IMG/VR virus record: IMGVR_UViG_2775507097_000001
Span: 29,192-93,191 of that record
Length of the DNA stretch: 64,000 bases
Direction: 5' to 3' (one strand)
From: a virus
Lineage: Duplodnaviria; Caudoviricetes
The position numbers and the translations under genes were made by a program. This document shows, piece by piece, positions 2,323-29,360 of the stretch. Under the pieces are notes generated by a model. The model had not been told where the DNA came from, searched no databases, and saw only the letters and a program-made list of their open reading frames with translations. Position 1 is the first letter of the stretch. Every line of letters begins with the position of its first letter.

Positions 2323-3408
2323 TCAGCTCTCCTCTACCAGGATCGGGCGGATGCGGTCGGCGCCCGGGTCGAGCTCCCACGACCAGCAGCGGGCGACCAC
2401 GTTGGCGCCTTGCGGGTGCCGCGGTGAGCGTTCGACGGCCATGCGGACGGTGTCGCCGAGCGCCCAGTCCCGGTTGAGGCGTGGGGCGCGGGAGGCGACG
2501 GCCTCGATGGACCACACCTGGGCGCCCTGTTGCATGAGCGTCAGCGACTGCGCGGCGTGGGCGTTCAGCTGGTCCGGGTCGGTGACGCCGGTTGCGGGGG
2601 TGTAGCGGTATTCCCAGCGGGGCCAGCCTGCGGCGATGAGCGCGGTCGCCTCGTGCGGGCTGGACGTGAGCCGGGACGACCCCTCGCCCTCACCACGGGC
2701 GAGAACGACGGTGGCGCCTTTGCCCTGTTCGTAGGACTCGGCGAGGGTGTACGAGTCGACGCAGCCCGGAAAGTCGAAGGTCGCTTCCGGCGTAGTTGTT
2801 TGGCTGCCGATGGCCGGGCGGACGCGCAGCGGGAACTGGAACCCCGAGTGGCTGCCGTTCCAGACGACGTCGACGGTCCACTCGGGGCCGCCGTCCAAGG
2901 CCATGAGCTCTTTGAGGCAGGAGAGGATCGACTTGTCGTCGCCGTCCTCGGTCAGGTAGGTCATGGTGACGCCCGTGTTCGGCGCGTCGATGACGATCGG
3001 CGGCCCGTTGGTGAGGGCGGGGGTGACGAGGGCAGAGATGACCGCTGCCTGGTCGGTGCCGATGAGGGTCTGCGTTCCCGGGTAGCGGCCGTCGAGGTAA
3101 GCCTCGAGGGTGATGGCCCCCAGGGACAGGGTCTGCGGGCTGCCACCGCCCCGGGTCAGTACCGCGCCCGCCCAGAGCGGCGTGTCAGTAGCTGTGTCGA
3201 CGGCCACCAGCGCGGACTGGCCCGGCGTGGTCGCTTCGGTCCAGCCGCTCGGAGCGCCAGCCAGGTTGAGCTCGAACTGGAGCGTTGTCGAGTCGCCGAG
3301 TTTCCGTGTGAGCGCCCCAGTCGGCTTGAGGGAGGGGAGGTCCTCGATGATGCCGCCCGAGCCCAGGTCGCAGCCGTACCAGGCAAGTTGGTAGGGCGTC
3401 TCCGTCAT
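2323..3408 (-). CDS. Minor tail / tail-tip (hub-like) protein
   Basis: Starts MTETPYQLAW at the ATG overlapping the upstream stop; LGDTV..V motif; third gene after the tape measure. Confidence 0.8.
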   Translation of the reverse strand: MTETPYQLAWYGCDLGSGGIIEDLPSLKPTGALTRKLGDSTTLQFELNLAGAPSGWTEATTPGQSALVAVDTATDTPLWAGAVLTRGGGSPQTLSLGAITLEAYLDGRYPGTQTLIGTDQAAVISALVTPALTNGPPIVIDAPNTGVTMTYLTEDGDDKSILSCLKELMALDGGPEWTVDVVWNGSHSGFQFPLRVRPAIGSQTTTPEATFDFPGCVDSYTLAESYEQGKGATVVLARGEGEGSSRLTSSPHEATALIAAGWPRWEYRYTPATGVTDPDQLNAHAAQSLTLMQQGAQVWSIEAVASRAPRLNRDWALGDTVRMAVERSPRHPQGANVVARCWSWELDPGADRIRPILVEES

Positions 3409-4439
3409 CAGACGGACTCGTAGGAGCCGGTGATGCGGACCTGGCTGCCGTTGGCCATGGTCTCCGGCACGCCCTGGCTGTGGAAGGCGAGCCGGCAGTC
3501 GGTCTGTGAGGGCGGGAAGAATGTGCTGATGCTCGTCGCGGTCGGCGAGATCACGGTCTGTCCCGCCCACCGGTTCGTGCCGAGCAGCTGGGCGACGCCG
3601 ATCATGGAGGCGCCGAGGTTGGCGGCCGCGAAGGGCGGCATTGTCCAGTTGTAGTTGCCGGACCCGTATGTGGTGGTCGAGCCGCAGGTGAGGTTGATGT
3701 GGAAGATCACCTGGCGGCCGATCTTCTGGTAGCGGCCGGCCAGCGTCCCGTTCCCCACGGCCGGGTTGGTGGTGGAGCCGGTCCACACCGGCGTGTAGGA
3801 CGTCCAGGCGCCCGGCACCTTGTAGTAGGTGTCGTAGGAGGATCCGTTCCAGCGCAGCAGGTCGGTGCCGTTGTCGTAGAACTGGCCGATGTACGGAGTC
3901 GAGGGCGCGGTCGCGGTGGGCAGGATGCCGCCCGGTGCCACGGTGTTGGGGCGGACCGCGGTCGACACGGAGGCGGTGCCGCCGTTCGACACGGACAGCA
4001 CGCTGATCGTGGCCAGCGGCATGTAGATCTGCGTGCCCGCCGGGGTCGGCGCGACCGGGGAGGCGGACGGGGTTCCCGCCAGGTAGACGATGTCGCCCTT
4101 GGCCAGGCCGGACGCGTCGACGGAGTTGTCCCACACCCTCAGATAGACCAAGTCCACCCTGTTCAGGGTGGCGTGGGCTGCCGTGTACGTGCCCGGGGAC
4201 ACCGTGGACGGGAACGCCACCCGGTAGACGCCTTGCCCGCTGAAGGCGACCGCGGCCACGCCCGCGCTGCAGTTGATGGTCGTACCGGCCAGCGTGACCG
4301 TCAGGCCCGGGTCGCCAGGCCGGACGCCGGACCGGGAGCCGAGGGCGGTCCCGTCGGTCATGATCTGCATGGCCTCGACGTTGCGGGCCTCCAGGCCCGA
4401 GAAGGTCAGCGAGTCGATCGCCCATACGTCTACTGGCAT
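3408..4439 (-). CDS. Minor tail protein
   Basis: RVDLVYLRVWD...YLAGTP motif typical of actinophage minor tail proteins; Thr/Gly-rich beta C-terminus. Confidence 0.8.
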   Translation of the reverse strand: MPVDVWAIDSLTFSGLEARNVEAMQIMTDGTALGSRSGVRPGDPGLTVTLAGTTINCSAGVAAVAFSGQGVYRVAFPSTVSPGTYTAAHATLNRVDLVYLRVWDNSVDASGLAKGDIVYLAGTPSASPVAPTPAGTQIYMPLATISVLSVSNGGTASVSTAVRPNTVAPGGILPTATAPSTPYIGQFYDNGTDLLRWNGSSYDTYYKVPGAWTSYTPVWTGSTTNPAVGNGTLAGRYQKIGRQVIFHINLTCGSTTTYGSGNYNWTMPPFAAANLGASMIGVAQLLGTNRWAGQTVISPTATSISTFFPPSQTDCRLAFHSQGVPETMANGSQVRITGSYESV

Positions 4440-4449
4440 GTCTGCCTCC

Positions 4450-5322
4450 TCACATCCAGGCCGAACGCCATGTGGCGGTCAGCATCGCGCTGGCGTTGTA
4501 GGTGCCCGACTGGAACTGGTAATTGACGGCCGAGCCGGCGGGGATCGTGGGCCAGCCGGACGCGACGGTCATGAAACGGCGACGGGAAACGCCGCCGTTG
4601 AGGACCACGGTGTGCGCGTCGGTGTCGATGACGAGGACATCGCCGCTGGCCAGATCCAGCGAGTAGACGAGCTGTCGCACCGTGCCGTCCGGATAGAGAG
4701 CGGACACGGTCGGCGCGACGACGGGCCCGGCGATCGTCAGGACCGGGCGGGTGTCCATGGAGCCGATGTTGATGGCGTTGATCTGCCCGGACACCGTCGT
4801 CGCCGAGAATGCGGCTGGGAACGTCACCGGGAAGGTCAAGCCACCCGTTGTGGTCGGCAGGCCCGTCGTGCCGGACTGCAGGGTCGTGCTGTAGCGCCGC
4901 GGATCCGCGGCCGTCACCAGCACGCTGTAGGTGGCGATCCGGTCCGTGACATAGGCCATCAGAGGCTTGCCGGACCGCCGGACCGTCGCCTGCTTCGGCC
5001 CCGTCAGCTCGTACACCACCAGCGTGGTGTCGCCCAGGGCGGCTGCCGTCCGCAGCCTCTCCAGGGCGTCCTCGAGCGTCGTCCGGTCCGGTGCCGTGAC
5101 CGTGCCGGCCAGCGTCATCGGGCGGGAGCCGAGATAGGTAGGCGACGCCCACGCCCCGTGGTCGGCTTCCCTCTCGGTGTATTCGGACCGGACCTCGGCG
5201 CTGTCCCAGCCGTCGAAGGACTGCAGGGACCAGGCGACCCCGTTCGCGTCCACCCCGCCGAGCGGGATGGCGCCGAGGTCGACCCGTAGTCCGCCGAGAT
5301 CCTGTCCTGCAGTGAACGGCAC
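4450..5322 (-). CDS. Distal tail protein (Dit-like)
   Basis: Immediately after the tape measure; DGW...R.MTLAG, AADPRRY and C-terminal WRSAW motifs. Confidence 0.85.
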   Translation of the reverse strand: MPFTAGQDLGGLRVDLGAIPLGGVDANGVAWSLQSFDGWDSAEVRSEYTEREADHGAWASPTYLGSRPMTLAGTVTAPDRTTLEDALERLRTAAALGDTTLVVYELTGPKQATVRRSGKPLMAYVTDRIATYSVLVTAADPRRYSTTLQSGTTGLPTTTGGLTFPVTFPAAFSATTVSGQINAINIGSMDTRPVLTIAGPVVAPTVSALYPDGTVRQLVYSLDLASGDVLVIDTDAHTVVLNGGVSRRRFMTVASGWPTIPAGSAVNYQFQSGTYNASAMLTATWRSAWM

Positions 5323-5335
5323 CGCGCCCCCTTCC

Positions 5336-8300
5336 TCAGCCGACGAAATTCATGTGCCGGGCAATGTCGGCGGCCTGTTCGGCGCTGGTCTGCTTGGCGC
5401 CATTGAGGGTGATGTTGGTGACGCGGTCGCCGTGCCCTCCGCCCCACGGGGTGCCGTAGTCGTTGCTGGCGTACCGGCTGGCCGGGACCAGGTGGTAGCC
5501 GAGCGCCGCCGCGGAGGCGGCCAGCAGCGCCCTGCTGCGGGCGGTCCGAGTGAGCGGGATGAACGCCTCCGGCCCCGCCTCCCCGGCCAGAACCGGGGTG
5601 GCCCGGCTGAGGATCCCGCCCAGTGCCATGGCCTTCCCGCCCTGGGACACCCACTGCCGGACGAAGACGTCCTTGTTCGGTGCCGGGAGCGCGCCGATCG
5701 CGCCGGTCATCTTCGGGACCAACGCCTTGATGACGTCGGTGCCCAGGCCTGCGGCGATGAGATCGGCGTAGCCGCGCCCGGTGCCGCCGCGCAGCGTGGA
5801 CAGCAGGATCAGGCTGTTGGTGAGGTCGTCACCGGTGAGCGTGCCCTCAGCCTTGCCGACCGCCTGGTTCGCCTTGGCGGCCTGCGTCTTGCTGCCGACC
5901 GCCTGGTGAGCGAGCGTCTGCGCGTTGGAGTCGCCCTGCGCGGCGAGCGCGGACGCCAGATCCCCGAACCCTTGCGAGGCCAGCGTCTGGAGATCCTTGG
6001 CGAACTGCTGGTTCGTGGTCGTCGCCGCGCCGAGCTGCTTGGTGAAGTCCTGCAGCGTGGCCTTGGCCACGTCCCCGGTTTTCTGGAGCTTCTTGACGAT
6101 GTCGTTGAACTGCTTGTTCGAGGCTCCGGCCAGCGAGTTGACGAGGGCGTAGCCGTCCTCGCCCATCCCTTCGAGCATCGACTCAACCTCGGCGCCGCCC
6201 CGCTTGCTGATCTTTGCGAGGTTGCCGCGCCACTTGTCCGTCGCCGCGACGCTCTTGTTGAGCTGCGTCTCGTAGGCCTTGAGGTCGAAGCCGGTGGGGG
6301 CCTTCGCCCCCTTCTTCACGCCAAGGGCCGCGTCTGCTTTGTTCACACCCGCGCGGTCAGCCGAGACCGTCTTGTCGGCAGACTTCTTCGCCGACCTGGC
6401 CTTGTCGACCCGCGACTGGGCGGCCCGCAACTGGGCCGCCGTGTGGTGACCGTGACGTACCCGGGACAGGTTCTTCTCGGCGTTGCTGAGGTCGTCGGCC
6501 TTCTTCTTCGCGTCCTTCAGCGCCGAGTTGAGCTTGTCCCATGCCGCCTTCAGGGCGTCGACGGCCTTGTCGTAGCGCGTCTTCGGATCCGACGGGCCGC
6601 CCAGCACTGCCTGCCCGGTCGGCGTGTAGGTGAAGCCGGCGAGCCCTCCGCCCGCGAACCGCTTGGCGTTGAGGCGGTCGAACATGTGGGTGCCGTACTT
6701 GCGGACGGCGTCTGCCTTGATGACGTACTCGCCGTTGGAGACGAGCGCCGGGATGCTGTCCGAGGTACCCGTGCCGGGGCCTACAACCCGGCCGCCGAAC
6801 GGCATGTACTGGATGGCACCGCCATCCGCGTAGCCCCGCACGAGGCCGCCGCGCGCGTACTTGCCGCCCTCATGGGCGACCGTGCCATGATCCGTGTGCG
6901 TCGTCACGACGTTGACGGAAACGGTCTTGCCATGGACACCGTCGATGTAGCCCTGGATGGTGGCCGCAGCCGAGCTCGGACCGCCCGTCGGCAGGGTGAT
7001 CGTGACCTGCTTGCCGTGCGTCCGCGAGATGTGGAACCCGAGCGACGAGAGCGCCTCCTCGGCCACCTTGGTCAAGGCTCCGACCGTGACGGTCTTCCCC
7101 TTGGTACCGGCGACCTTGCGCCGTACTGCGTCCAGATCCGTGAGCGCCTTGGAAGTTGCAGCACTGACCGGCAGCTTCTTCCCCGGCAACTTCTTCGCGA
7201 GCAGCGCGTCAAGAGCGGCAGCAGCCTTGTCGGTCGGCGCCGTGATCTCCATCTGCCGGCCGCCGGGCAGCGTCTTGACCTTGAAGCCGACCGACTCGAT
7301 GTCCTTCTTGGCCTCGGTGGTCAGCGCCGACACCCGGATCGTGGAGCCCTTCGGCATGTGCCCGGCAAGACCCTGGACGTACAGCAGCTGCTTCTGCGTG
7401 TCCGACAGACCCGGCGTCGACATCGTGATCGCCAGCGACGACGGGATGAACCCCATCTGCATGGCCAGGACCTTCGCCTGGTCGGCGGTGAGCCCGAACT
7501 TCTGCCCGGCCCTGACTGCGGCCTTCCACGACTTCTCCATGGCGCCCTCGGCCTGCTGCAGCGCCGGAACGACATCGGTCTTGTTGGCCCTCGCGTAGTC
7601 GTAGGTGGCCTGGGCCGCGCCGGCCGTCTGCTCGTTGAGGCCCTGCAGCTTGGTCCACAGGGACTGCCCGTTCTCACTCGTCGTGTTCAGGCTGCCGTCG
7701 ACCTGCAGAAGAGCCTTGCCGTAGCCCTTCGCGTGGTCGACGCCGTCCTTGTAGCTGCCGTTGAGATCAAGCAGCGCCTGATTCATGACCGCGACCGCCG
7801 CCTGCACGTCCAGCTCGCCGCCCGACAGCAGATCGAGAGCAGTGTGCAGAGCGCGCGCCTTCGTGTCCGCATCCGATGCGGAGTCCCCGAGCGTCTTGAT
7901 CGCGCCCTGCAGCCGCCCCGTCGGATCGGTGGCATCCAGAGCCGCAGCGCCAGACCCCTTGACCGCGTCGGCCAAGTCCTTCTGCTTCGTGCGAGCCGCG
8001 TCGAACTCCCCGGAGAGAGAACCGAGCGCATCAGCGGCGTTCTTGTAGACCTGCCCCTGCGGCGTGTACACCTTGCCGGCCGTCCGGCCTGCGTTCACAA
8101 ACTTCGTGTTCTCCTCGGCGGCAGCGGATAGCCGCTTGCGCAGCCCATCAACCGATGTGCCCTGCCCGAGGTAGGCGTCCGTGAGCTGGGTGGCGTTGAT
8201 GCCCGCGCGGTGCATGACGTCCAGCAGTTGCGTCTTGCCGTCCTTCAGCTTTGTGTCCGCCAGGGTCTGCACGGCCGCAGCGCGAACGCTGCCGTCTGCC

Positions 8301-10612
8301 ACACCGGCGGACTGCTGCAGTGCCGTAGTGAGAGCGGAGATCCGCTGCTGGTGGGCTGCCGCGGCAGCCGCGGCTTCCTGCTGCTTCTTGGCCAGCAGGT
8401 CCAAGCCGATCATTGCGGCGCCGATTGCGACACCCCACGGCCCGCCGAGGAACCCGTACAAACCCCGGGCGGCACCCATCAGCCCGCGCCCGGCGCCCGT
8501 GCCGATCGCGGCCAGAGCGCCGCCGGCCGCCGACCGGAAACCGACCAGGCGACCGCCAGCCTCCTGGATGCCAGTAGAGGCGGTGCGGAACGAGTTGCCC
8601 ATCGCGGCGATCGTCGGGGAGCGGGCCTCGAGTGCAGCGAGCCCGGCACCCCAGCGGCCGAGCGAAACCCCGGCCCGGCTGGCAAGGATCGTCTGCGTCT
8701 GCATGGCGCCGCGCACGCCGTTGAACGACGCGACCGCCGAACGGCCGTAGCCCGCGACCGCGTTCTGCATGCCCTGGATCTGCCCACGGAACGGGCGCAT
8801 GGCGAGCATTGCCAGCACGGACAGCTGGATCGGGCCTGGCAGCCCTGCGAACGCGTGCGCGATGCCGCCCACGAGCTCGCCGACCGGGCGCAGGATTCCC
8901 GACATCTCCCCGAAGAGCCCCACGCCGACCTGGAGACGGCCTGTGAGCACACCAAGGGCACCCGCCCCCGAGGAGACGGACCCGAACATGTCGTGCAGCC
9001 CGCCGAGCAGTGGCTGGGCGGCAGCCCCGGCGTTGCCGAACGCCTGGCCGAGGGAGTGCACGGAGGTGATGGCCAGCGGCACGGAAGCAACCGCAGCCGA
9101 CGTGATCGCCGCCTTCAGTGGGGCGGCGAGACTCGACGCGGCCCGGCCGATACCGCCAGCCGCCGAGTGCAACTTCGCCTCGACGGACGGCCCGTAAATG
9201 TCCCACAGGTCACCGGCGATACGGATGCCGGACTTGATGTACGGGATGGCCTTCGAGACGCCCTGCGTCATCGACCGCGTGATTCCCTCGAGGCCCGGGG
9301 CGATGCCCAGGTAGATCTGGAGGAACGCGCTGGAGATCTGCTTGCCGAGGCCGCGCATCGCGCCGCCCAAGCCCTTGGACTCGGCGGCAGCCAGAGCCGC
9401 GGCCCCGCCCACACGACCTACCTGCACGCCGAACGTCTGGAAGGCTTCCCCGCCCTGGTGCGCGAGGGCCACCATGCCCGCGAGGGCGGGCTTGCCGAAC
9501 GCCATTGCCGCGGCGGCCGTGAACTGCTGGGTGGTGAGGTGGTGGGAGGCGTCACCGAGCTTGGTGATGACGTACTGCAGGCCCTTGAAGTTGCCCTGGC
9601 CGTCGAACGCCTCGATGCCGAGCTCGTGAAGACCCTTGGTGGCCAGCTTGGTCGGCTTGGCCATGTTGACCAGCGCCGACCGCAGGGCGGTACCGGCGGT
9701 CTCACCGATGATGCCGGACTTGCCGAGCAGGCCAACCGCAGTGGCTGTGTCCTTGATGGAAACGCCCATGGTGTGGGCGATCGGGCCCACGTACTTCATG
9801 GCGTAGTAGATGTCCATCAGCTCGCCAGAGGCACTGTTGGACGTGTTCGCAAGGACGTCCGCGACGTGGGTCGCCTCTGTGGACTTGAGGGCGAACTGGT
9901 CCATGATGTCGCCCTCGATCTTCGCCGCGGTTGCGACGTCAGTTCGAGCAGCAGCAGACAGCTGGATCGTGCCTCGAGCAGCCCTGATCGCGTCCTGCGC
10001 AGACAGGCCCGCCTTCGACAGCTCCACCATCGCGTCCGCGGCCTCAGCCGCATTCGCCGACGGCAGCTTCATGTCCGCGCCGAGGGCCTGCGCCTCACGG
10101 CCGGCCGCCGCCATCTGTCCCCCCGAGGCGCGCGTGACCTCGAGGAATTTGTTCATCGCGTCCGTGTACTCGTTGCCCGAGTGGACGATGTCGTGCAGGC
10201 CGAAGATGATCGCGCCGCCCGCCAGAAGCGCGCCGAGGTGCTTCATCGGGCCTAGGACTGATGTGATGCCGGACTGGACTGAGCCCATTCCGGTGCGCGC
10301 CGCAGCCCCCATCCGCCCGAAAGCGGGCGACGTCAGGGCGGCCTCGTTCCGCATGGCCCGCGCGCCGCGGCCTGCGGCCAGCGCCGCAGCTTCGGCCTCA
10401 CCGACACCCGCCGCGCCGCCGCGCGCACCCGCCCCCATGGCCATGAGGCCGGTGCGGGCTATCGCCCCGTCCGCGCCGAGGGCGCGAATCCCGCGCCCAG
10501 CGACAAGGGAGGCCTCGCCGAGGGCCAGCAGTTCGCCAGTGCCGGTACGCACGATGGTGCCAAAGCCCGGCATCTCGGCGATGACGCGGACGCGCACGGT
10601 ACGGTCGGCCAC
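5336..10612 (-). CDS. Tape measure protein (1758 aa)
   Basis: Very long Ala/Gly-rich helical ORF with a TP901-type TMP core (AAEAADAMVELSKAG, AGTALRS) and GPGTGTSDSIPA..SNGEYV and GEAGPEA motifs. Confidence 0.97.
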   Translation of the reverse strand: MADRTVRVRVIAEMPGFGTIVRTGTGELLALGEASLVAGRGIRALGADGAIARTGLMAMGAGARGGAAGVGEAEAAALAAGRGARAMRNEAALTSPAFGRMGAAARTGMGSVQSGITSVLGPMKHLGALLAGGAIIFGLHDIVHSGNEYTDAMNKFLEVTRASGGQMAAAGREAQALGADMKLPSANAAEAADAMVELSKAGLSAQDAIRAARGTIQLSAAARTDVATAAKIEGDIMDQFALKSTEATHVADVLANTSNSASGELMDIYYAMKYVGPIAHTMGVSIKDTATAVGLLGKSGIIGETAGTALRSALVNMAKPTKLATKGLHELGIEAFDGQGNFKGLQYVITKLGDASHHLTTQQFTAAAAMAFGKPALAGMVALAHQGGEAFQTFGVQVGRVGGAAALAAAESKGLGGAMRGLGKQISSAFLQIYLGIAPGLEGITRSMTQGVSKAIPYIKSGIRIAGDLWDIYGPSVEAKLHSAAGGIGRAASSLAAPLKAAITSAAVASVPLAITSVHSLGQAFGNAGAAAQPLLGGLHDMFGSVSSGAGALGVLTGRLQVGVGLFGEMSGILRPVGELVGGIAHAFAGLPGPIQLSVLAMLAMRPFRGQIQGMQNAVAGYGRSAVASFNGVRGAMQTQTILASRAGVSLGRWGAGLAALEARSPTIAAMGNSFRTASTGIQEAGGRLVGFRSAAGGALAAIGTGAGRGLMGAARGLYGFLGGPWGVAIGAAMIGLDLLAKKQQEAAAAAAAHQQRISALTTALQQSAGVADGSVRAAAVQTLADTKLKDGKTQLLDVMHRAGINATQLTDAYLGQGTSVDGLRKRLSAAAEENTKFVNAGRTAGKVYTPQGQVYKNAADALGSLSGEFDAARTKQKDLADAVKGSGAAALDATDPTGRLQGAIKTLGDSASDADTKARALHTALDLLSGGELDVQAAVAVMNQALLDLNGSYKDGVDHAKGYGKALLQVDGSLNTTSENGQSLWTKLQGLNEQTAGAAQATYDYARANKTDVVPALQQAEGAMEKSWKAAVRAGQKFGLTADQAKVLAMQMGFIPSSLAITMSTPGLSDTQKQLLYVQGLAGHMPKGSTIRVSALTTEAKKDIESVGFKVKTLPGGRQMEITAPTDKAAAALDALLAKKLPGKKLPVSAATSKALTDLDAVRRKVAGTKGKTVTVGALTKVAEEALSSLGFHISRTHGKQVTITLPTGGPSSAAATIQGYIDGVHGKTVSVNVVTTHTDHGTVAHEGGKYARGGLVRGYADGGAIQYMPFGGRVVGPGTGTSDSIPALVSNGEYVIKADAVRKYGTHMFDRLNAKRFAGGGLAGFTYTPTGQAVLGGPSDPKTRYDKAVDALKAAWDKLNSALKDAKKKADDLSNAEKNLSRVRHGHHTAAQLRAAQSRVDKARSAKKSADKTVSADRAGVNKADAALGVKKGAKAPTGFDLKAYETQLNKSVAATDKWRGNLAKISKRGGAEVESMLEGMGEDGYALVNSLAGASNKQFNDIVKKLQKTGDVAKATLQDFTKQLGAATTTNQQFAKDLQTLASQGFGDLASALAAQGDSNAQTLAHQAVGSKTQAAKANQAVGKAEGTLTGDDLTNSLILLSTLRGGTGRGYADLIAAGLGTDVIKALVPKMTGAIGALPAPNKDVFVRQWVSQGGKAMALGGILSRATPVLAGEAGPEAFIPLTRTARSRALLAASAAALGYHLVPASRYASNDYGTPWGGGHGDRVTNITLNGAKQTSAEQAADIARHMNFVG

Positions 10613-14843: not shown

Positions 14844-15209
14844 CTACTCCTCGGCGTCGGCCAGGGCCGTCAGCCGCTTCACCACGGTCGACCGCGGCTT
14901 GTCCTTCGCCTGCTCAGCCGCCAGGGCCTGCGCCGCACGCTCGCGGTCGCCGTCCACCCACGACATGAGGTCGTCGATCGTGCCGTCCACCGGCGGACCG
15001 TCGCCCTCTTCCTGCTGCTCGGGCTCGGCCGGGGGCTCCTTCGGCGCCTGAGGCGGCTCGGGGTCCGCCTCCAGGATCTCCACCGATCCCTCGGGAGCGT
15101 TGTCGGCGAAGTGCCGGGCCTGATCGCCCTCCAACTCCGCGTCCTTATGGAACGTGGTGACCGCATAGTTCCAGTACGCGGTGAACTCCTCGAGCACGCG
15201 CACGCGCAT
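14844..15209 (-). CDS. Hypothetical head-associated protein
   Basis: Follows the capsid gene; C-terminal GT..D...WV.GD..RA..AL.AE....PRST motif common in actinophages. Confidence 0.75.
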   Translation of the reverse strand: MRVRVLEEFTAYWNYAVTTFHKDAELEGDQARHFADNAPEGSVEILEADPEPPQAPKEPPAEPEQQEEGDGPPVDGTIDDLMSWVDGDRERAAQALAAEQAKDKPRSTVVKRLTALADAEE

Positions 15210-15279: not shown

Positions 15280-16617
15280 TCAGGCGTGCTCGATGACAAC
15301 GCCGCGCTTGTACAGCGCCGCATCGCCCGTGCCCGCATCGGACGGAACACCGAAGTCACCGACCCACGACCAGGTCGAGGAGATGACCTGCTGCAGGCGG
15401 TCCTGCGCCGGACGCACCAGCAGGGTGACGTCCACGGCAGGCGCGGCCTGGATGGTGCGGATCTCGGGCACGTCCTCGACGCCGGTTCCGGCGAGGAGAC
15501 TGTTGGTGCCCTCGAACGGAGCCGCCATCAGCGCGTTCGCACCCAGCACGATCGGCCGGTGCACGAGCAGGGTGCCCGCCGAGCCGCCGTTGGCGATGGT
15601 CGGGGCCTCGAGGTTGCGGACCCAGTCGATGCCGGCGAAACGCCCGATGCTGAGGTCCCGGTAGATCGGGGAGTCGATGCGGCCCTGAAGGGCCTGCTTG
15701 AAGTCGGAGTCCGCGAACAGCTGGGCCTCGGTGTCGGGGTCGATGTGGGCGACGTAGTAGCCGCCGACGGTCGGGACCGCCATCTTCCGCAGGCGCGCCA
15801 CGGCGGCCCTGAAGTTCGCGAACGTCACCGTGTTCGACCCGGTCAGGTCGTAGGCGGAGTTGCCGGTCGCCCGGACCGAGATCGGAGCGTTCGCCGCGAC
15901 CACGTAGTCACCGGCGACGTCGACGCGGGCAGTGCCCAGGGTCAGCGTCTTGGTGCCGAGGTTCACGCCGGTCACCGTGTTGCCGGTGCCCGCGATCGAC
16001 ACGGTGAGCGGGTTGGACGCCGACACGGCGGTCGGGACACCGTTGACCATGACGGTCTCGAAGCCGTCCGTCGAATTGACGATGATCGACGTGTCCGAGG
16101 ACCCGGCCGTGGTGCACCAGGTCCGGCCGCCCGCGTAGGCCTTGAACAGCTTGTTCCGGGCCACCTGGTTGATGGTCTGACCTGCGTTGATGCCGAGGTT
16201 CTCCACGTCGGCGAGGAACTTGCTCGCGAGGGCCATCGAACTGCCCAGCATGTTGGTGTCCATCGAGTTCGCGTACTGGTCCATCGTCACGGACCACTGC
16301 TCGATGCTGTACGTGGCCGCCGACGGGTCCGACCCGGTCACCGGAGTGGTGACGGGGGCGAGCAGGCCCTTGCGGGTGAAAGTCTTGGTGTCACCCAGGC
16401 CGCCCATCCACGGCTCCGCGTCCGCGATCTGTGGGAACAGGAAGTTCGGCACCAGCGCGTCCCGGAACACGCGGTCGAGCATGCCGTTCTGCAGCATCGC
16501 CTGGATGCCAGCAGGCAGGGACGGCCGGACACCAGCGTGCCGGTCGAGTCGGAACCACGGCCGGGCCGGGCCCTTGACGGAAAGCCGCGGACGGGCCGCG
16601 GTCAGGCTGGGGGTCAT
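15280..16617 (-). CDS. Major capsid protein
   Basis: 445 aa downstream of the scaffold; HK97-like features (Y.AHIDP....QL..D, G.F.GIDW); highly biased codon usage. Confidence 0.85.
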   Translation of the reverse strand: MTPSLTAARPRLSVKGPARPWFRLDRHAGVRPSLPAGIQAMLQNGMLDRVFRDALVPNFLFPQIADAEPWMGGLGDTKTFTRKGLLAPVTTPVTGSDPSAATYSIEQWSVTMDQYANSMDTNMLGSSMALASKFLADVENLGINAGQTINQVARNKLFKAYAGGRTWCTTAGSSDTSIIVNSTDGFETVMVNGVPTAVSASNPLTVSIAGTGNTVTGVNLGTKTLTLGTARVDVAGDYVVAANAPISVRATGNSAYDLTGSNTVTFANFRAAVARLRKMAVPTVGGYYVAHIDPDTEAQLFADSDFKQALQGRIDSPIYRDLSIGRFAGIDWVRNLEAPTIANGGSAGTLLVHRPIVLGANALMAAPFEGTNSLLAGTGVEDVPEIRTIQAAPAVDVTLLVRPAQDRLQQVISSTWSWVGDFGVPSDAGTGDAALYKRGVVIEHA

Positions 16618-16618
16618 G

Positions 16619-16807
16619 TCACTCCTCAGTGATCTCTACGGACACCAGGTCCGGGTATTGCTCAGCGACCATCTGGAGGCCGAGCAGTGCGGTTTGGGCG
16701 ATGGCCGAAACGGCGGCGCAGACGCGACCCCCAGCGGCGTGCTCCTCGTGACCGGCCACCGTTATCTCGGTGCGCCCGTCGCCCAGATGGGCACGGACTT
16801 CGATCAC
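16619..16807 (-). CDS. prp: Prp-like (ribosomal-processing, DUF464) cysteine protease; candidate capsid maturation protease
   Basis: I.V.GH....(G)..VCAAVSAI.QT...GL signature with His/Cys dyad; translationally coupled between scaffold and capsid. Confidence 0.8.
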   Translation of the reverse strand: MIEVRAHLGDGRTEITVAGHEEHAAGGRVCAAVSAIAQTALLGLQMVAEQYPDLVSVEITEE

Positions 16808-17538
16808 ACGCGTTGCCTGTAGCCGTACTTGGCGAGCTCCGCGGCGACCTGGTCCTTCGAGGCCTCGAGGTAGTTCACCGGCGCGGGAGCACCGCGCGAG
16901 CCCTGGCCGGGGTCCGGCTTGGGCTGCGGCTTCTTCTCGGGGGCCGGAGCAGCCGGCTCGGGCCTGGCCCAGTGCGGCTTACGCTCCAGCAGGTCCGACA
17001 GGGCCGTCTCGATGGCGTCCGTGTCGATCTCGCCGTCGGCGTCGACGTACTGGCTGGGGTCACGCATCAGCACGTCCACCGCGTCAGTCGGGTCGGCGAA
17101 CTCTCCGGCCGCCGCACGGACCTCGGCAGCCACAGCGCGCGCCGTGGCCTTCGCAGCCTGCTTCTCGGACCGTTCGGCCTTCGCCGCGAGCTTCTCCGAC
17201 TCGGTCCGGTCGCGGTCCTTGAACTCCTCAACCTGGCGGGCGAGGTCGTCGGCGCGCTTCTTCTCCGCGGCCGCGGCCTTCCGGGCTTCCGCCTTCTCGG
17301 CCTTCATACGGTCGAGCGCTTTCTTACCCGCGTTGCCGAGCTTGTCGGCGCCCTCGGGCTCCGGCTCAGGCTCGGGGTCCGCCGGATCGTCTGCAGGATC
17401 CGGGGCGGGCTCGGGGTCTGCGGGGTCGTCCGCCGGGTCCGGAGCAGGCTCGGGGTCGGACGGCTCGGGGTCGTCGTGTCGGGACAGGTTGAACCAGGCG
17501 ATCCCGGTTGCCGGGACCTTCTCAATCTCGGTGGACAT
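16804..17538 (-). CDS. Capsid scaffolding protein
   Basis: Acidic Pro/Asp repeats (DPEPAPDPADDPA twice), LG.AGKKAL..MK, coiled coil, PDPGQG; RBS GAAGGGG before ATG 17538. Confidence 0.88.
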   Translation of the reverse strand: MSTEIEKVPATGIAWFNLSRHDDPEPSDPEPAPDPADDPADPEPAPDPADDPADPEPEPEPEGADKLGNAGKKALDRMKAEKAEARKAAAAEKKRADDLARQVEEFKDRDRTESEKLAAKAERSEKQAAKATARAVAAEVRAAAGEFADPTDAVDVLMRDPSQYVDADGEIDTDAIETALSDLLERKPHWARPEPAAPAPEKKPQPKPDPGQGSRGAPAPVNYLEASKDQVAAELAKYGYRQRV

Positions 17539-18667: not shown

Positions 18668-20050
18668 TCAGCCTCCCGCAGGGGCCTCGAGCGGCTGCGG
18701 CTCCGGCTGGGCGGTGGACAGCTGGTGCAGATCCATCGCCGTCATCCGGGTCAGGGCCTCGTCCTGCATGCCCCGCATTCGGTCCCGCTGCACTGCGCTG
18801 TAGCCGAGGTCTTCCCATGCCTGCTCGGTCGGCAGGATGCCGCTGGCGTGGAGTTTCACGACGGCGTCGGCTTTCTGTGCGTAGGTCGGAGTCGCCGGGT
18901 CCCGCCACACGGTCTCGAGCTTGCCGGTCCGCGGGTCGAGTTTGCCGTCCCGGACCAGCAGGACGAGCCGCATGACGCGTTCCCACGCCTCGCCGAACGC
19001 CCGCTGACGCCGCTCCGCGCGCTTCACCAGACGAGCCTCCGACGCGCGGATCGCGTCCGCGGACGGCGGCTGATCGGTGGCCAGGCCGAGGAATGCGGGC
19101 GGCAGGCCCGTCAGGGCAGCCACCAGACGCGCAAGAACGTTGATCGTCTCGTGGAAGTTCGACAGCTGCGCCTCGGGGAACTGGCCGAACTTGACGTTGT
19201 CGCCCTCGTTCACCCACAGGCGGCCCGCCAGCGACGACATCGCACCGAGCGGCTGCCCGTTCTCGTCGGCGAAGTCGTCCCGGGACATGCCCGTCGCCCA
19301 CCGGCGCGGCATCGCGTGATACTCCGCGCTGACCATCATGTCCGAGGCGATCTTGCAGGCCGCATCCGAGATCGGAATGACGGAGCGCAGTTCAGACGTG
19401 CCGTCCAGGTGGCGCAGCCGCGGCCGGTTCGCCAGCGGGACGACAAGCACCTGGCCGAGCTTGTGCTCGTCCTGCTCAACCGCGGTCCAAGCGCCCTTCT
19501 GCTGCTCGAACGTGATCCGCTTGTTCGGCAGATACAGCGTCGCCCACTTCACCGGGGCAGCCCCCGCGGAGGGTTCATCCCACCGCTTGATCGCCGCCAT
19601 CACCTGCCGGGTACGAGGATCCCGCTCCGCGAACACCTCGAGGGCGGACTCTGCGGTGATGATCGGCGTGGCCTCGTCGTCCTCGTTCGCGCCGATGATC
19701 GCGTAAGACCGTTTCAGGGCCAGCGCATCGACGTGGGCCTGCTGGCTGCCCTCGTCCATGTCGGAGGCCTGCCACACCGACCACAGATCCTCCGCCGTGG
19801 TCTCACTGTCCGCGTACCGGAAGCCCTCGACGTCCAGCCGCTCATCCAGCGCGTCCACCACCAGTTGCGGCCAGTTGATGACCAGCTGCCGCATCCGGTC
19901 CGACAGCTCCGACTGGATCTCCGGCGCTAGATACGACAGAGGCTGCGTGCCCTCGTAGTAGCTGTCCATCAACCGCAGATTCGGCAGATCGTTGTCGTGC
20001 GCCGCAATCAGCCGCTTCAGCCAGGCATCCGGCTCGAGGTCGAGGGCCAC
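18668..20050 (-). CDS. Portal protein (SPP1 gp6-like)
   Basis: YYEG.Q, NW..LVVD...ERL, PSADAIRA.E..L motifs; follows terL. Confidence 0.95.
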   Translation of the reverse strand: MALDLEPDAWLKRLIAAHDNDLPNLRLMDSYYEGTQPLSYLAPEIQSELSDRMRQLVINWPQLVVDALDERLDVEGFRYADSETTAEDLWSVWQASDMDEGSQQAHVDALALKRSYAIIGANEDDEATPIITAESALEVFAERDPRTRQVMAAIKRWDEPSAGAAPVKWATLYLPNKRITFEQQKGAWTAVEQDEHKLGQVLVVPLANRPRLRHLDGTSELRSVIPISDAACKIASDMMVSAEYHAMPRRWATGMSRDDFADENGQPLGAMSSLAGRLWVNEGDNVKFGQFPEAQLSNFHETINVLARLVAALTGLPPAFLGLATDQPPSADAIRASEARLVKRAERRQRAFGEAWERVMRLVLLVRDGKLDPRTGKLETVWRDPATPTYAQKADAVVKLHASGILPTEQAWEDLGYSAVQRDRMRGMQDEALTRMTAMDLHQLSTAQPEPQPLEAPAGG

Positions 20051-20068: not shown

Positions 20069-21688
20069 TCATCGCATCACAGTCGTCTTCCGGGAGCGCG
20101 GCGGCTCGTTGCCGCCCGCCTTGATTGCGTCCCGTCGGGCTTCCCAGGACAGGCAGCCCGCCATGGAAAGGTCGATCTTCCGAGGGGAGTCGTGGCGGTC
20201 CTTCTGGATCACCCACATCGGCTTGCCCTCGTCGTCCTTCACTCCGGCGTTCCGCTTCACCGCATGGGCGATGTGCCGGGCGAAGGCGTCGCTGCCGTCG
20301 TGCGACAGCTCGCCGCCCGTCATTGCCGTCTTGTACGCGCGCAGGGCGAACGCCATCTGGCGGCGCCGGTGCGTCCACCACTCGGTGACGACCTTCGGGC
20401 CGTACTTGCCGGCCCAGCCCGCGATCGTCTCCTCCCAGTAGGCCGGGTCCGCGTAGACGCGCACGACCCGCCACGTTTGCATGGCCTCGTCCAGTACGGC
20501 GTTCACCTCGGCCTCGGGGACTTCCCACGATTCGGCCTCCTGCTTGTTCGCAGGCGACTCCCACACCCCGAGCACCCACTGGTGGCCCGTCTCGATGTGG
20601 GTCGCGATGAAGCCTGTCGAGTCGCTCCACTTCGACCCGTCGAAGCCGATCGCGATCGCTTCCTTCGCCGGGACGATGAAGTGCGAGTCCGCCAACTCCC
20701 GCCAGCGCCCCGGGTCGAACGCCTTCGCTGAGGCGGTTCCGGGCTGGTTCAGGAAGTACCTGCGGGCGTCCGCCGGATCGGTGTCCGGCTCCCGCATATC
20801 GCTGGCAATCCGCTCGAGATCCATCCACTTCGCTGCGTCGCCGTACACGAACTCCAGAGCGGGCAGCAGCTGGTCGTCGTCGTGCAGGTCCTCGACATGC
20901 GGGGCTTCGCGGTGGTCAAAGAGCAGACCGCCGTCACGTACCCGGCCCGAGGCGACCGCCTTGTGGTACTCGTGCGTCGCCTCCGCCACCGAACTCTCGC
21001 CGACCGCATACATCGTCGACGTCTCCAGTGACCACGGCTCGGCAGCACGGCGCTTCACCAGGTTGCGGCGCACCGTCTTGTGCATGGCCTTCAGCTCGGG
21101 CAGGACGTACAGGTGCGTCTCGTCGAAGACGCTGAACGTCTCCTTGCCGCCATCCTTCGCGGCGCCGGACGACGTCGACGGGACGATCTCGCCGCCGCCC
21201 TCGATGAAGATGCGGCTCGACGTCTGCGCCGAACGCCCCAGGTCGATTCCCGGGAACTCGTCGCCGGCGTATTCGACGAGGTGCTCGAGCATCGCCGTGA
21301 CGTTGTCGTAGGTGTTGCCGGACTGGTTCTCCTCCGTCGCCAGGCAGCGAATGAAGGGGTACACCTGCGCGCGGCCCACCGGATCACCGGCAGCGTCCCA
21401 GCCGTCGAACCTGCACGGCCCCAGCGCCTCGAAGCACACCAGCGCGCCGGCGAGCTCGCTCTTCGCCCTGCCCTTCGGCCGGGACAGGAACGCGCGGTTG
21501 ACCTTCCGGCGGCCCGTCACCGGGTCGAGCTGGTAGGCCTTGACGATGAACGCGGCCATCTCGTCGTCGATGAGCAGAGGCTCGCCCTGCACGTCGCCGG
21601 GACCGTGGCACAGGTAGTGCTCGATCCAGTCGATGGCCTCGAAGCCGAGGGAGACGAAGCGGTCCGGGTCAGCTATCCGCCTGGCCAT
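20069..21688 (-). CDS. terL: Terminase large subunit
   Basis: RPKGRAKS Walker A, VFDETH Walker B, GFDGS...DST nuclease motif, KID. Confidence 0.97.
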   Translation of the reverse strand: MARRIADPDRFVSLGFEAIDWIEHYLCHGPGDVQGEPLLIDDEMAAFIVKAYQLDPVTGRRKVNRAFLSRPKGRAKSELAGALVCFEALGPCRFDGWDAAGDPVGRAQVYPFIRCLATEENQSGNTYDNVTAMLEHLVEYAGDEFPGIDLGRSAQTSSRIFIEGGGEIVPSTSSGAAKDGGKETFSVFDETHLYVLPELKAMHKTVRRNLVKRRAAEPWSLETSTMYAVGESSVAEATHEYHKAVASGRVRDGGLLFDHREAPHVEDLHDDDQLLPALEFVYGDAAKWMDLERIASDMREPDTDPADARRYFLNQPGTASAKAFDPGRWRELADSHFIVPAKEAIAIGFDGSKWSDSTGFIATHIETGHQWVLGVWESPANKQEAESWEVPEAEVNAVLDEAMQTWRVVRVYADPAYWEETIAGWAGKYGPKVVTEWWTHRRRQMAFALRAYKTAMTGGELSHDGSDAFARHIAHAVKRNAGVKDDEGKPMWVIQKDRHDSPRKIDLSMAGCLSWEARRDAIKAGGNEPPRSRKTTVMR

Positions 21689-22124
21689 CGACGACCTTCA
21701 GGACGCGGTCCCTGCGTGAGGTTCCACCGCGGGGGCTTGCCGAGCGCCGGGCCACAGGCTCGATGTCCGGCTCGGCTACGGTCCAGCGCAGCCGCACCCG
21801 GTCCGCTGCCGTGCCGCCGAGGGACGCCTCGTTCAGCCGGATCTCCGCCAGCAGATCTTTCCTCGGCTCGCCCCAGTACTCCTGCACGAGTTCGGCGAGC
21901 ATGTGCAGCCGCTGCCAGTCCGTCGGCAGGAACGTCGCAGCTTGCGGGCTGCTGCGCCACGTCTCGTACCAGGCCAGCGTGCGGCTGTCGTAGTCGTGTC
22001 CGCCGGGCAGTTCCGGCGTGGGTCCATCCGGTCCGTTCGCCGGGAGGACTGTCGTCGTGACCGCGTCGGCGTTGCGCCGGCGCCGCTGAGACGCATCCTT
22101 CGGCAGGGGTCCGTTTCCAGGCAT
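21669..22124 (-). CDS. terS: Terminase small subunit
   Basis: G.GP.PK....RRRRN, W..W..SPQA, EIR..EA..G.T..DR.RLR; overlaps the terL start. Confidence 0.88.
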   Translation of the reverse strand: MPGNGPLPKDASQRRRRNADAVTTTVLPANGPDGPTPELPGGHDYDSRTLAWYETWRSSPQAATFLPTDWQRLHMLAELVQEYWGEPRKDLLAEIRLNEASLGGTAADRVRLRWTVAEPDIEPVARRSASPRGGTSRRDRVLKVVDGQADS

Positions 22125-22324
22125 TGTGATCACCTCTGTTGGTGCCGTTGCGGCATCAGACCGACGGCCATTGCGGCGCGCCGGTAGCTACACAGGGTTA
22201 CGCGATGAAGATCGATTTCCGGGGCCCAAAATCCTGTGACCCGTATGGGACCCGATAGCCCTCCCCGTAGGTCCAGATTCCATGATCCAATGACCCTTTG
22301 GCCCCTGGGTCTTGCCCGCCGAGG

Positions 22325-28586: not shown

Positions 28587-29360
28587 TCACGCCACTTTAC
28601 GGCGCCCTTCAGCGAGCGACCTGAGATCGGATAGCAAGTAGAGGCTCACGCCGTCGTCGTCTACCACGAAGGGTTTCAGCTTGCCTCGGTGTTGCCATAC
28701 GGCCGCCGTGTTGTGGCGGATGCCCAGGAGACTGGTTGCTTCCCTGAGGGTGGACAGGTCCGGCTGGAGGGGAGGCCCGGGTGTTACGGCAGCAGTGGCG
28801 GGTCTGCGTTCCAGCCCCGCCAGCGTGGGCCATTCCGGGTCCGGGGGACCGAACTGATCCGCCACAGCTGCAATGTGCGCATCTAGCGCTTCATCGCGAC
28901 GGAAGTACTCTCCCCTGCTGGTCACCCGGATGTTGCGGAATTGCTGGTGACGCAGCGACTCCCCTTCGCGGCCGCCGGGTTCCCAGGCAAGCACCTCGTC
29001 GGGGAGCAGTGCTTCGAACCTCTTGTACGGGCTGGTTGTCGTCCCGATTTTCACGAGGCGCCCGCGGAGGGCGTAGTACACGATCGATGCGGGGATGCGC
29101 CCCGGCTGGCGTGCGGCTGCCAGCCGCTGTTGCTCCGCAAACTTCTCCCGACCCGCCTCTACGGCTGCGCCAACCTCTTGCATCGTCAGCGTTCCCCGCT
29201 CTGTGCGCTTTTGCTGGAGCTGGACTGCGATGAAGGTGAATGCCGGGTCGTCTGTGTCGATCAAGTCCATGAGGGTCTGGATACTGCGCCGAACACCATC
29301 TCCGACACGGATCCTCTCCTGCCAGTCTCGGGACAGGCGAGGTCGCCTAAGCTGTGGCAT
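28587..29360 (-). CDS. GIY-YIG/T5orf172-like domain protein with C-terminal HTH
   Basis: VYY.....VKIGTT....R...E...H.QF......GEYF; C-terminal LREA..LLGI..NT...W..RGKL. Confidence 0.75.
   Translation of the reverse strand: MPQLRRPRLSRDWQERIRVGDGVRRSIQTLMDLIDTDDPAFTFIAVQLQQKRTERGTLTMQEVGAAVEAGREKFAEQQRLAAARQPGRIPASIVYYALRGRLVKIGTTTSPYKRFEALLPDEVLAWEPGGREGESLRHQQFRNIRVTSRGEYFRRDEALDAHIAAVADQFGPPDPEWPTLAGLERRPATAAVTPGPPLQPDLSTLREATSLLGIRHNTAAVWQHRGKLKPFVVDDDGVSLYLLSDLRSLAEGRRKVA

Follow-up and report, generated by a model that had tools for sequence, protein, structure and literature searches.

A 62-residue Prp-family protein encoded between scaffold and capsid genes: predicted head-protein processing in an actinobacterial prophage

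Introduction

How might a prophage mature its head proteins when no protease of the HK97 (S78) type can be found in its genome or in that of its host? The question is raised by a 64,000-nucleotide stretch of DNA (hereafter, the window: positions 29,192 to 93,191 of IMG/VR record IMGVR_UViG_2775507097_000001), which is a portion of contig C29 in an 11.7-Mb, 98-contig actinomycete genome with 69% G+C, and which bears a prophage whose structural genes lie on the minus strand. Between the genes for the scaffolding protein and for the major capsid protein (MCP) of this prophage sits a small gene encoding 62 amino acids, and both of its neighbors encode proteins whose N-terminal region contains the same motif, W-F-x-L-x-R-H. 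The small product, here termed mini-Prp, belongs to the family of Prp, the essential ribosome-maturation protease of Firmicutes that has been borrowed by some staphylococcal phages.

The comparisons described below lead us to conclude that the head proteins are most likely trimmed by the phage itself, with an unusually small enzyme. The prophage would then possess a self-contained apparatus for head-protein processing, consisting of a half-length Prp and two tagged substrates.

Results

A Short Member of the Prp Family

Against the Pfam profile Peptidase_Prp (PF04327), mini-Prp scored 29.9 bits, above the gathering cut-off of 27, with profile positions 1-57 of 90 covered; it also matched PHROG 4478 ("peptidase"). 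The His/Cys signature of Prp, which a first-pass annotation had read in this open reading frame (ORF), is indeed there, as G19-H20 followed by C30-A-A-V-S34. In a HMMER alignment to the Prp of Staphylococcus aureus (SaPrp; 4peo), residues G19, H20, G27, C30, and S34 of mini-Prp fell on G21, H22, G29, C34, and S38, respectively, and the activity of SaPrp is abolished by mutation of G21, H22, C34, or S38 (PMC9405229). When 30 relatives of mini-Prp were aligned, G19, H20, G27, and C30 were invariant (30/30) and S34 was present in at least 90%.

A word-seeded search, run over 5.8 billion proteins, brought up 144 homologues, nearly all of them 61-65 residues long, from Streptomyces, Kitasatospora, Nonomuraea, Micromonosporaceae, and metagenomes. 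Because these homologues are consistently about 62 residues long, the size of mini-Prp is not a truncation artefact. The first-pass view that the protein is much shorter than a typical Prp is borne out by them and also, as described below, by the two-stretch manner in which full-length Prps match its profile.

Many prophage copies of mini-Prp carry the NCBI product name "ribosomal-processing cysteine protease Prp". We regard "ribosomal-processing" as a functionally misleading misnomer for these genes, since mini-Prp scored at most 20.7 bits against the NCBIfam ribosomal-Prp equivalog models (whose cut-offs are 122-225), since the genes lie in a phage head module, and since the L27 protein of the host, which starts MAHKKGASS, has no N-terminal extension. 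The mini-Prp gene was moreover the sole Prp match in the 11.7-Mb host genome, in keeping with the first-pass remark that Actinobacteria are not known to use the L27-extension/Prp system.

A Shared Tag on Two Unrelated Proteins

The MCP tag, W21-F-R-L-D-R-H27, is followed by AGVRP, and the scaffold tag, W40-F-N-L-S-R-H46, by DDPEP; both lie exactly where the first-pass annotation had placed them (Table 1). It had further remarked that the two proteins are otherwise unrelated, and they do fall into different families (PHROG 4708 and Pfam Phage_scaffold for the scaffold, PHROG 1357 and the N4-gp56-like family for the MCP). Chance is excluded as the source of the shared tag: translated in six frames, the window offers about 128,000 codons, among which the loose core F.[LIVA].R[HF] turned up four times and the strict form twice, both times at the N-termini of these same two proteins.

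The tag was conserved in 124 related MCPs and 120 related scaffolds, with its F and R invariant. The consensus of 93 distinct scaffold and 75 distinct MCP sequences, numbered from the predicted cut, has Trp at P7, an invariant Phe at P6, Leu at P4, an invariant Arg at P2, and His at P1; in six scaffolds P1 was Phe instead of His, and P1′ was Asp, Ala, or Asn. MCP leaders were 13-29 residues long, with little common sequence before the tag, and indels sat directly after the tag His (RH-DVRS, RH-AGVRP, RH-AVGVRS, RH-MPIRA). In two related prophage/viral MCPs (L028:3693-3839 and L159:3692-3838), the tag is found twice in tandem, as MTLTARRSWFRLDRH-DGLRTLIPSPAAKARATARPWFDLGRH-DVRSTLP, which suggests that the leader is a modular, duplicable signal.

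As read from their junctions, the scaffold, mini-Prp, and MCP genes are translationally coupled, as had been supposed: the mini-Prp start overlaps the scaffold stop as GTGA, and the last two mini-Prp codons form GAGGAG, which would also act as the Shine-Dalgarno sequence of the MCP gene (ATG at 16617). The true start of the scaffold is probably M26 of its longest ORF, an ATG at 17538 with the Shine-Dalgarno sequence AAGGGG before it. Starting there, the scaffold leader would have 21 residues, a length comparable to that of the 27-residue capsid leader. The predicted mature proteins are A28-A445 for the capsid (418 residues, N-terminus AGVRP) and D47-V269 for the scaffold.

Co-Occurrence of Tag and Protease

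We assembled 128 mini-Prp loci, comprising 46 actinobacterial prophage loci and 80 viral contigs, all fetched via mini-Prp, together with the window and the phage Kromp. At 116 of these loci, the scaffold encoded before mini-Prp and the MCP encoded after it both had the core F-x-[LIVA]-x-R-[HF], the other loci being cut by contig ends; that is, every locus with both neighbors readable had the tag on both proteins, and one frameshifted contig can be added to them. In this last contig, from IMG/VR (L095:1079-2175), the scaffold tag (GASWFRLDRHDDPDPADP) is in a frame other than that of the rest of the scaffold ORF, probably as the result of an assembly frameshift.

For the converse test, the search was made with the mature MCP alone (residues 28-445), and 80 loci were retrieved, at 69-98% identity. 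The tag was present in all 80, and mini-Prp in all of the 79 that had enough upstream DNA.

More distant MCP homologues (about 35% identity) occur in Ralstonia and Komagataeibacter phages. Ralstonia phage Hyacinthe has no Prp; its MCP begins MPISNFPAALQPIIQQNFL and aligns to the window MCP from residue 29 onwards (AGVRPSLPAGIQAMLQNGML), while its scaffold begins MADPDPNPNP, resembling the window scaffold right after R-H (DDPEPSDPEP). Across 78 viral contigs of the Hyacinthe-like clade, no tag was seen and no Prp ORF lay within 3 kb of the MCP gene, and the MCPs began at the point that aligns with residue 29 of the window MCP. The N-termini predicted for the mature tagged proteins therefore fall where leaderless relatives naturally begin. 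Co-occurrence of motif and protease in related phages, which had been suggested as a check, held without exception, and the tag was absent from the capsid homologues that lack Prp.

Relation to the Canonical L27-Type Tag

On L27 in Firmicute loci, the canonical tag reads MFKFDLQLF↓AHKKG (here and below, ↓ stands at the known or expected cut). In one metagenomic phage (L254), a 75-residue short Prp adjoins a scaffold with the sequence ...QILDLQLF↓ADPDPD and an MCP, of the same family as that of the window, with the sequence ...LFVFDLQLF↓PGDVSQFPAQI. The latter aligns position by position with WFRLDRH↓AGVRPSLPAGI of the window MCP, the P6 Phe and the P4 Leu being kept while the P2 Leu is replaced by Arg and the P1 Phe by His. 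A second phage (L255), with an SU10-type portal and MCP, encodes an 81-residue short Prp and has the tags FDLQRF↓ on an unnamed 321-residue protein in the scaffold position (2948-3913) and LDLQFF↓ on the MCP (3929-5101). Both of these short Prps keep D-I-V-C. At a third locus (L256), a more divergent 58-residue short Prp is accompanied by WFRLDRH on both scaffold and MCP. Of the eight short-Prp contigs consulted for gene context, three were considered from their gene tables alone; two of these have the order scaffold-sized gene, short Prp, MCP-sized gene, and the third is cut at both ends.

Judged by these alignments, the R-H tag is a diverged Prp tag, a relationship that is new; because it aligns with the canonical L27-type tag, the cut most likely falls after the tag His. 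The site put forward in the first-pass annotation, after R-H, would agree both with the F↓A cut position of L27-type tags and with the N-termini of the leaderless homologues.

The tag FDLQRF↓ of L255, with Arg at P2, looks like a halfway form between the canonical and the R-H tags. In SaPrp, F42 stacks on the Phe residues at P1 and P2, and mini-Prp has Q38 in its place; that this Gln co-varies with the switch to R-H was considered and dropped, as Gln is also found there in short and long Prps with canonical F-ending tags.

One of Two Repeats

The mini-Prp profile matched solved Prps in two pieces, with residues 2-38 on SaPrp 2-42 and residues 36-53 on SaPrp 82-99. An exhaustive search of 1.84 billion representatives with this profile gave 766 matches, of which the best 150 were examined for their match stretches. 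Among these 150, the match was a single stretch in 41 of the 42 proteins of at most 85 residues, and it was split in two in 99 of the 108 proteins of at least 90 residues, profile positions 1-48 falling on the N-terminus and positions 34-58 on residues ~78-103. The helix segment of the profile was in this way matched twice in long Prps, once by helix 1 and once by helix 2. An AlphaFold2 model of mini-Prp (pLDDT, the predicted local distance difference test score, of 88.7) has strands at 2-8 and 13-19, a helix at 28-50, and an extended C-terminus, which amounts to one β-β-α unit; the 62-residue protein falls short of the full Prp fold, a two-repeat arrangement of about 100-110 residues (β1-β2-α1-β3-β4-α2-β5).

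Profile matches and model together indicate that Prp consists of two β-β-α repeats and that mini-Prp fuses the first part of repeat 1, with its catalytic residues, to the last part of repeat 2. Because the helix segment is matched twice, and in view of the model, mini-Prp appears to be a Prp that has lost one repeat of two, about 45 residues having gone from between the homologous helices. This, too, is new.

Low-G+C sequences are found among the 42 short representatives, as are forms with the DIVC loop, and GH...C is kept in 40 of the 42. The ESM Atlas has clusters of 62-, 64-, and 55-residue Prps, one of which is mostly viral. On these comparisons, short Prps are a broad phage class that extends beyond the mini-Prp clade, a point that is likewise new. 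In a tree of the catalytic module (about 45 columns), the short forms clustered, with 12 state changes vs 29-38 in the shuffles shown, a result compatible with one or several deletions.

One 66-residue short Prp (L251:3001-3201), on a 28.7-kb metagenomic phage contig, is located among small genes near a Gp80-family protein, with no obvious scaffold or MCP gene adjoining. Given this context, some phages may use their short Prps on other substrates.

Other Genes of the Window

The features of the head module are collected in Table 1. Between the portal and MCP genes there are the MuF-like gene, the scaffold gene, the mini-Prp gene, and nothing else.

Table 1. Features of the prophage head module, in window coordinates
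Feature	Position	Strand	Matches and remarks
Small terminase	21669-22133	minus	
Large terminase	20069-21688	minus	
SPP1-type portal	18668-20050	minus	
MuF/VG15-like minor head protein, 345 aa	17629-18666	minus	PHROG 1522; Pfam VG15 below cut-off; context only, not tracking with the tag
Scaffolding protein, longest ORF 269 aa	16804-17613	minus	PHROG 4708 at 4e-23; Pfam Phage_scaffold
Scaffold tag WFNLSRH	17476-17496	minus	predicted cut after H46, giving N-terminus DDPEPSDPEP
Mini-Prp, predicted 62-aa Prp-family cysteine protease	16619-16807	minus	Pfam PF04327, PHROG 4478; G19-H20, C30, S34; single β-β-α(-β) unit
GAGGAG, last two mini-Prp codons (Glu-Glu)	16622-16627	minus	read in the sequence; putative ribosome-binding role
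MCP, 445 aa, N4-gp56-like HK97-fold family	15280-16617	minus	PHROG 1357 at 2e-24; TIGR04387 at 52.7 bits
Capsid leader, residues 1-27, with tag WFRLDRH at its end (16537-16557)	16537-16617	minus	predicted cut after H27
121-aa ORF directly 3′ of the MCP gene	14844-15209	minus	
Head-tail adaptor, after the 121-aa ORF in gene order		minus	

The 121-residue ORF that follows the MCP gene has an acidic, Pro-rich center and no Pfam or PHROG match; its position is kept in Kromp (gp8, hypothetical), and it may encode a protein for capsid decoration or head completion. A 1758-residue ORF (5336-10612, minus strand), located downstream of the genes for head and tail, is likely to encode the tape measure protein, which fits a siphovirus-type prophage. 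Across the whole 64-kb window, no tRNA gene was found.

The MuF/VG15-like protein contains a Cys-rich motif, GACARCA ... HKRCAC. Its homologues in GenBank phage records are variously labelled "capsid maturation protease", "MuF-like minor capsid protein", "portal", and "LamD-like decoration protein".

Discussion

Proposed Mechanism

We think it probable, on the evidence of the alignments and of the gene contexts, that the phage encodes a reduced cysteine protease of the Prp type and that this enzyme takes the leaders off scaffold and MCP by cutting after R-H. In the mechanism that we propose, scaffold and MCP would each be synthesized with an N-terminal leader of some 21-27 residues that has W-F-x-L-x-R-H at its end, and mini-Prp would be translated from the same message, between the two. 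The enzyme would recognize the tag as cellular Prp does the L27 leader, the peptide being anchored through its hydrophobic residues at P6 and P4, and Cys30, supported by Gly19-His20 and Ser34, would then cut after the His. The products would be a mature capsid protein starting from A28-GVRP and a mature scaffold starting from D47-DPEP. Both the cleavage itself and the exact scissile bond are what we infer from these comparisons.

More tentatively, we suggest that mini-Prp could be an autonomous 62-residue protease, active by homo-oligomerizing into a Prp-like shape and endowed with a private specificity (W-F-x-L-x-R-H, cut before D or A) that would be orthogonal to that of cellular Prp. This is a possibility rather than our expectation. 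Half-size subunits would presumably associate with one another and so restore the two-repeat Prp fold.

Objections and Alternatives

Several observations weigh against a proteolytic role of this kind. Mini-Prp lacks about 45 residues of the Prp fold, its His-Cys loop has 9 residues instead of the usual 11, and within that loop the equivalent of SaPrp D31 is missing (GGRVC vs DIVC); this Asp, three residues before the Cys, stabilizes the loop, and the D31A mutant of SaPrp is inactive (PMC9405229). Structure comparison gave little in return: a Foldseek search of the mini-Prp model against the PDB produced no match at E ≤ 0.001, and VIA-align placed 2idl, 1s12, 4peo, and 2g0i in the top 25 of 48,161 chains at Z scores of 3.4-4.2, which is the range of noise, with the C-terminal repeat as the aligned part; weak as they are, these alignments would be in line with the deletion model. 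At P1′, the tagged family has mostly Asp, a position at which SaPrp tolerates small residues alone. The activity of mini-Prp and of the whole short class is a prediction from sequence comparison and models, and we found no paper on short Prps or on actinophage Prps in the searchable literature, whose coverage did not extend to the two original Prp papers of 2015 and 2017. Finally, in Staphylococcus phage 80alpha the scaffold leader is needed for assembly and its cleavage by Prp is dispensable (PMC5744158), so the tag described here could serve assembly no less than cleavage.

The last point, together with the loss of half the fold and of the D31 equivalent, would also suit an alternative in which mini-Prp is a non-catalytic or barely catalytic tag-binding chaperone that coordinates the folding or co-assembly of scaffold and capsid, cleavage being absent or incidental; a chaperone role has been proposed for cellular Prp as well (PMC9405229). 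However, the Gly-His, Cys, and Ser residues are invariant, or nearly so, down to about 50% identity, and GH...C persists throughout almost all of the short class, which is what catalysis, more than mere binding, would lead one to expect. Furthermore, the leaderless homologues start exactly at the predicted cut, suggesting that the mature shell does not contain the leader. All in all, we find the chaperone explanation unlikely, though it is the strongest of the alternatives.

Alternatively, the tag could be a shared assembly or targeting signal, for example for the portal, for scaffold-capsid contact, or for another protease; any processing of it would be the work of a host protease or of the MuF-like protein, and mini-Prp would act elsewhere. 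Co-occurrence alone is indeed no proof of an enzyme-substrate relation, and the 345-residue upstream gene is the one that databases label as a capsid maturation protease. Yet the MuF-like protein had no protease family match, nor did phmmer find any match to it among PDB sequences, and the label looks unsupported. Its distribution is also at odds with such a role. Homologues of the gene were found in 94 phage records, among which Kromp alone has mini-Prp and the tag, and no tag occurred anywhere in the head modules of the six MuF-positive, Prp-negative phages whose records were sampled (Arthrobacter Hestia, Arthrobacter Peas, Brevibacterium AGM4, Streptomyces AbbeyMikolon, Gordonia Phishy, and Rhodococcus Sleepyhead). 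To go by this distribution, the MuF-like gene is not the partner of the tag. Four of the five annotated scaffolds in MuF-positive, Prp-less phages start directly with the acidic, Pro/Gly-rich stretch.

As to other proteases, the first-pass annotation had seen none of the HK97 type in the window, and this can be extended, as the whole genome gave no match to the S78/HK97-type family (PF04586); ClpP (PF00574) matches were confined to contigs C6, C16, and C18, with none in the window. Since, in addition, the tag aligns with the canonical Prp/L27 tag through the short-Prp phages, processing by some other protease appears decidedly improbable.

That mini-Prp is a decaying internal-deletion remnant of a full-length phage Prp, kept by linkage and with the tags as relics, would account for its shape of a deletion derivative, but we give this very little credence in view of a length fixed at 61-65 residues across over 140 clusters that span many actinomycete genera, a mean column identity of 71% with no disrupted copies noted, the invariance of the tag F and R across all the distinct scaffold and MCP sequences, and the preserved translational coupling.

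Significance

Scaffold, protease, and capsid genes amount to a portable three-gene cassette for head maturation. If mini-Prp is active, it would represent a third capsid-processing route in actinobacteriophages, beside the S78-type and ClpP-type proteases, and two widespread annotations would stand corrected, namely "ribosomal-processing cysteine protease" for the prophage genes and "capsid maturation protease" for the MuF-like gene. An active 62-residue protease with a seven-residue tag would also be of use as a tool, and as a model of how much of a protease fold is dispensable. Should the autonomous half-fold prove true, mini-Prp would be among the smallest known proteases, a natural reversion from a duplicated to a half-size, self-associating fold, and a candidate orthogonal enzyme for tag removal.

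Comparison with Known Systems

Part of what we describe is already known: the cleavage of 80alpha head proteins by host Prp, the Prp-related protease of phage Cp-1, the annotation of Kromp gp6 as "protease", and the NCBI Prp names on prophage copies.

Mini-Prp shares its Pfam family with cellular Prp (YsxB; PF04327; MEROPS C108), which removes the N-terminal extension of L27 in S. aureus and other Firmicutes and is a homodimer that binds its substrate at the interface. The Gly-His ... Cys-x-x-x-Ser module at the start of helix 1 is common to both, and the substrates are alike in having a short N-terminal leader, hydrophobic residues at P6 and P4, and a cut (predicted, in our case) at the last residue. 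In contrast to the cellular enzyme, which has about 105 residues and is encoded between rplU and rpmA, mini-Prp has 62 residues, is missing one β-β-α repeat, and is encoded in a phage head module. Its loop is two residues shorter and has no D31 equivalent, the tags end in R-H↓D/A as opposed to F-F↓A, and its host has no long L27.

The head protease of Streptococcus phage Cp-1, orf13, is assigned to MEROPS clan CR (PMC9405229). Like mini-Prp, it is a phage-encoded, Prp-related cysteine protease, and it removes an N-terminal extension of about 40 residues from the major head protein. Unlike mini-Prp, it has full length (104 residues) and is encoded away from the capsid gene. The statement in the first-pass annotation that Cp-1 encodes its own Prp is loosely true: a Prp-related protease is present, but its weak, whole-profile match to Pfam Prp (18.5 bits) is below the cut-off.

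Further parallels are the short-Prp phages L254 and L255, where the Prp gene likewise adjoins scaffold and MCP genes that are both tagged, L254 having an MCP of the same family next to its 75-residue Prp. These phages have canonical DLQLF↓ and DLQFF↓ tags and the DIVC loop, whereas the actinophage branch has R-H at P2/P1 and a shorter loop.

Another counterpart is Streptomyces phage Kromp (MH744420), in which gp5-gp6-gp7 form the same three-gene cassette: gp6 has 62 residues and is 76% identical to mini-Prp, gp7 is 57.6% identical to the window MCP, and the tags are WFQLTRH↓DD on the scaffold and WFRLDRH↓DI on the MCP. The record of gp6 says "protease", without substrate or tag. Kromp is an isolated phage, as opposed to the prophage studied here, and the predicted mature N-termini (AGVRP... 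for the capsid and DDPEP... for the scaffold of the window) could be directly tested on it.

In Staphylococcus phage 80alpha, finally, the leaders of the capsid protein (gp47) and of the scaffold (gp46) are cut by host Prp (PMC5744158). As in our prophage, one N-terminal tag is shared by an unrelated scaffold and MCP, and there is no classical prohead protease. But 80alpha relies on the enzyme of its host and on a copy of the host L27 tag, whereas the mini-Prp phage has a reduced enzyme of its own and a private tag, its host having neither. The arrangement is the reverse of the staphylococcal borrowing: phages of Prp-less hosts carry a stripped-down Prp along with cleavage tags of their own.

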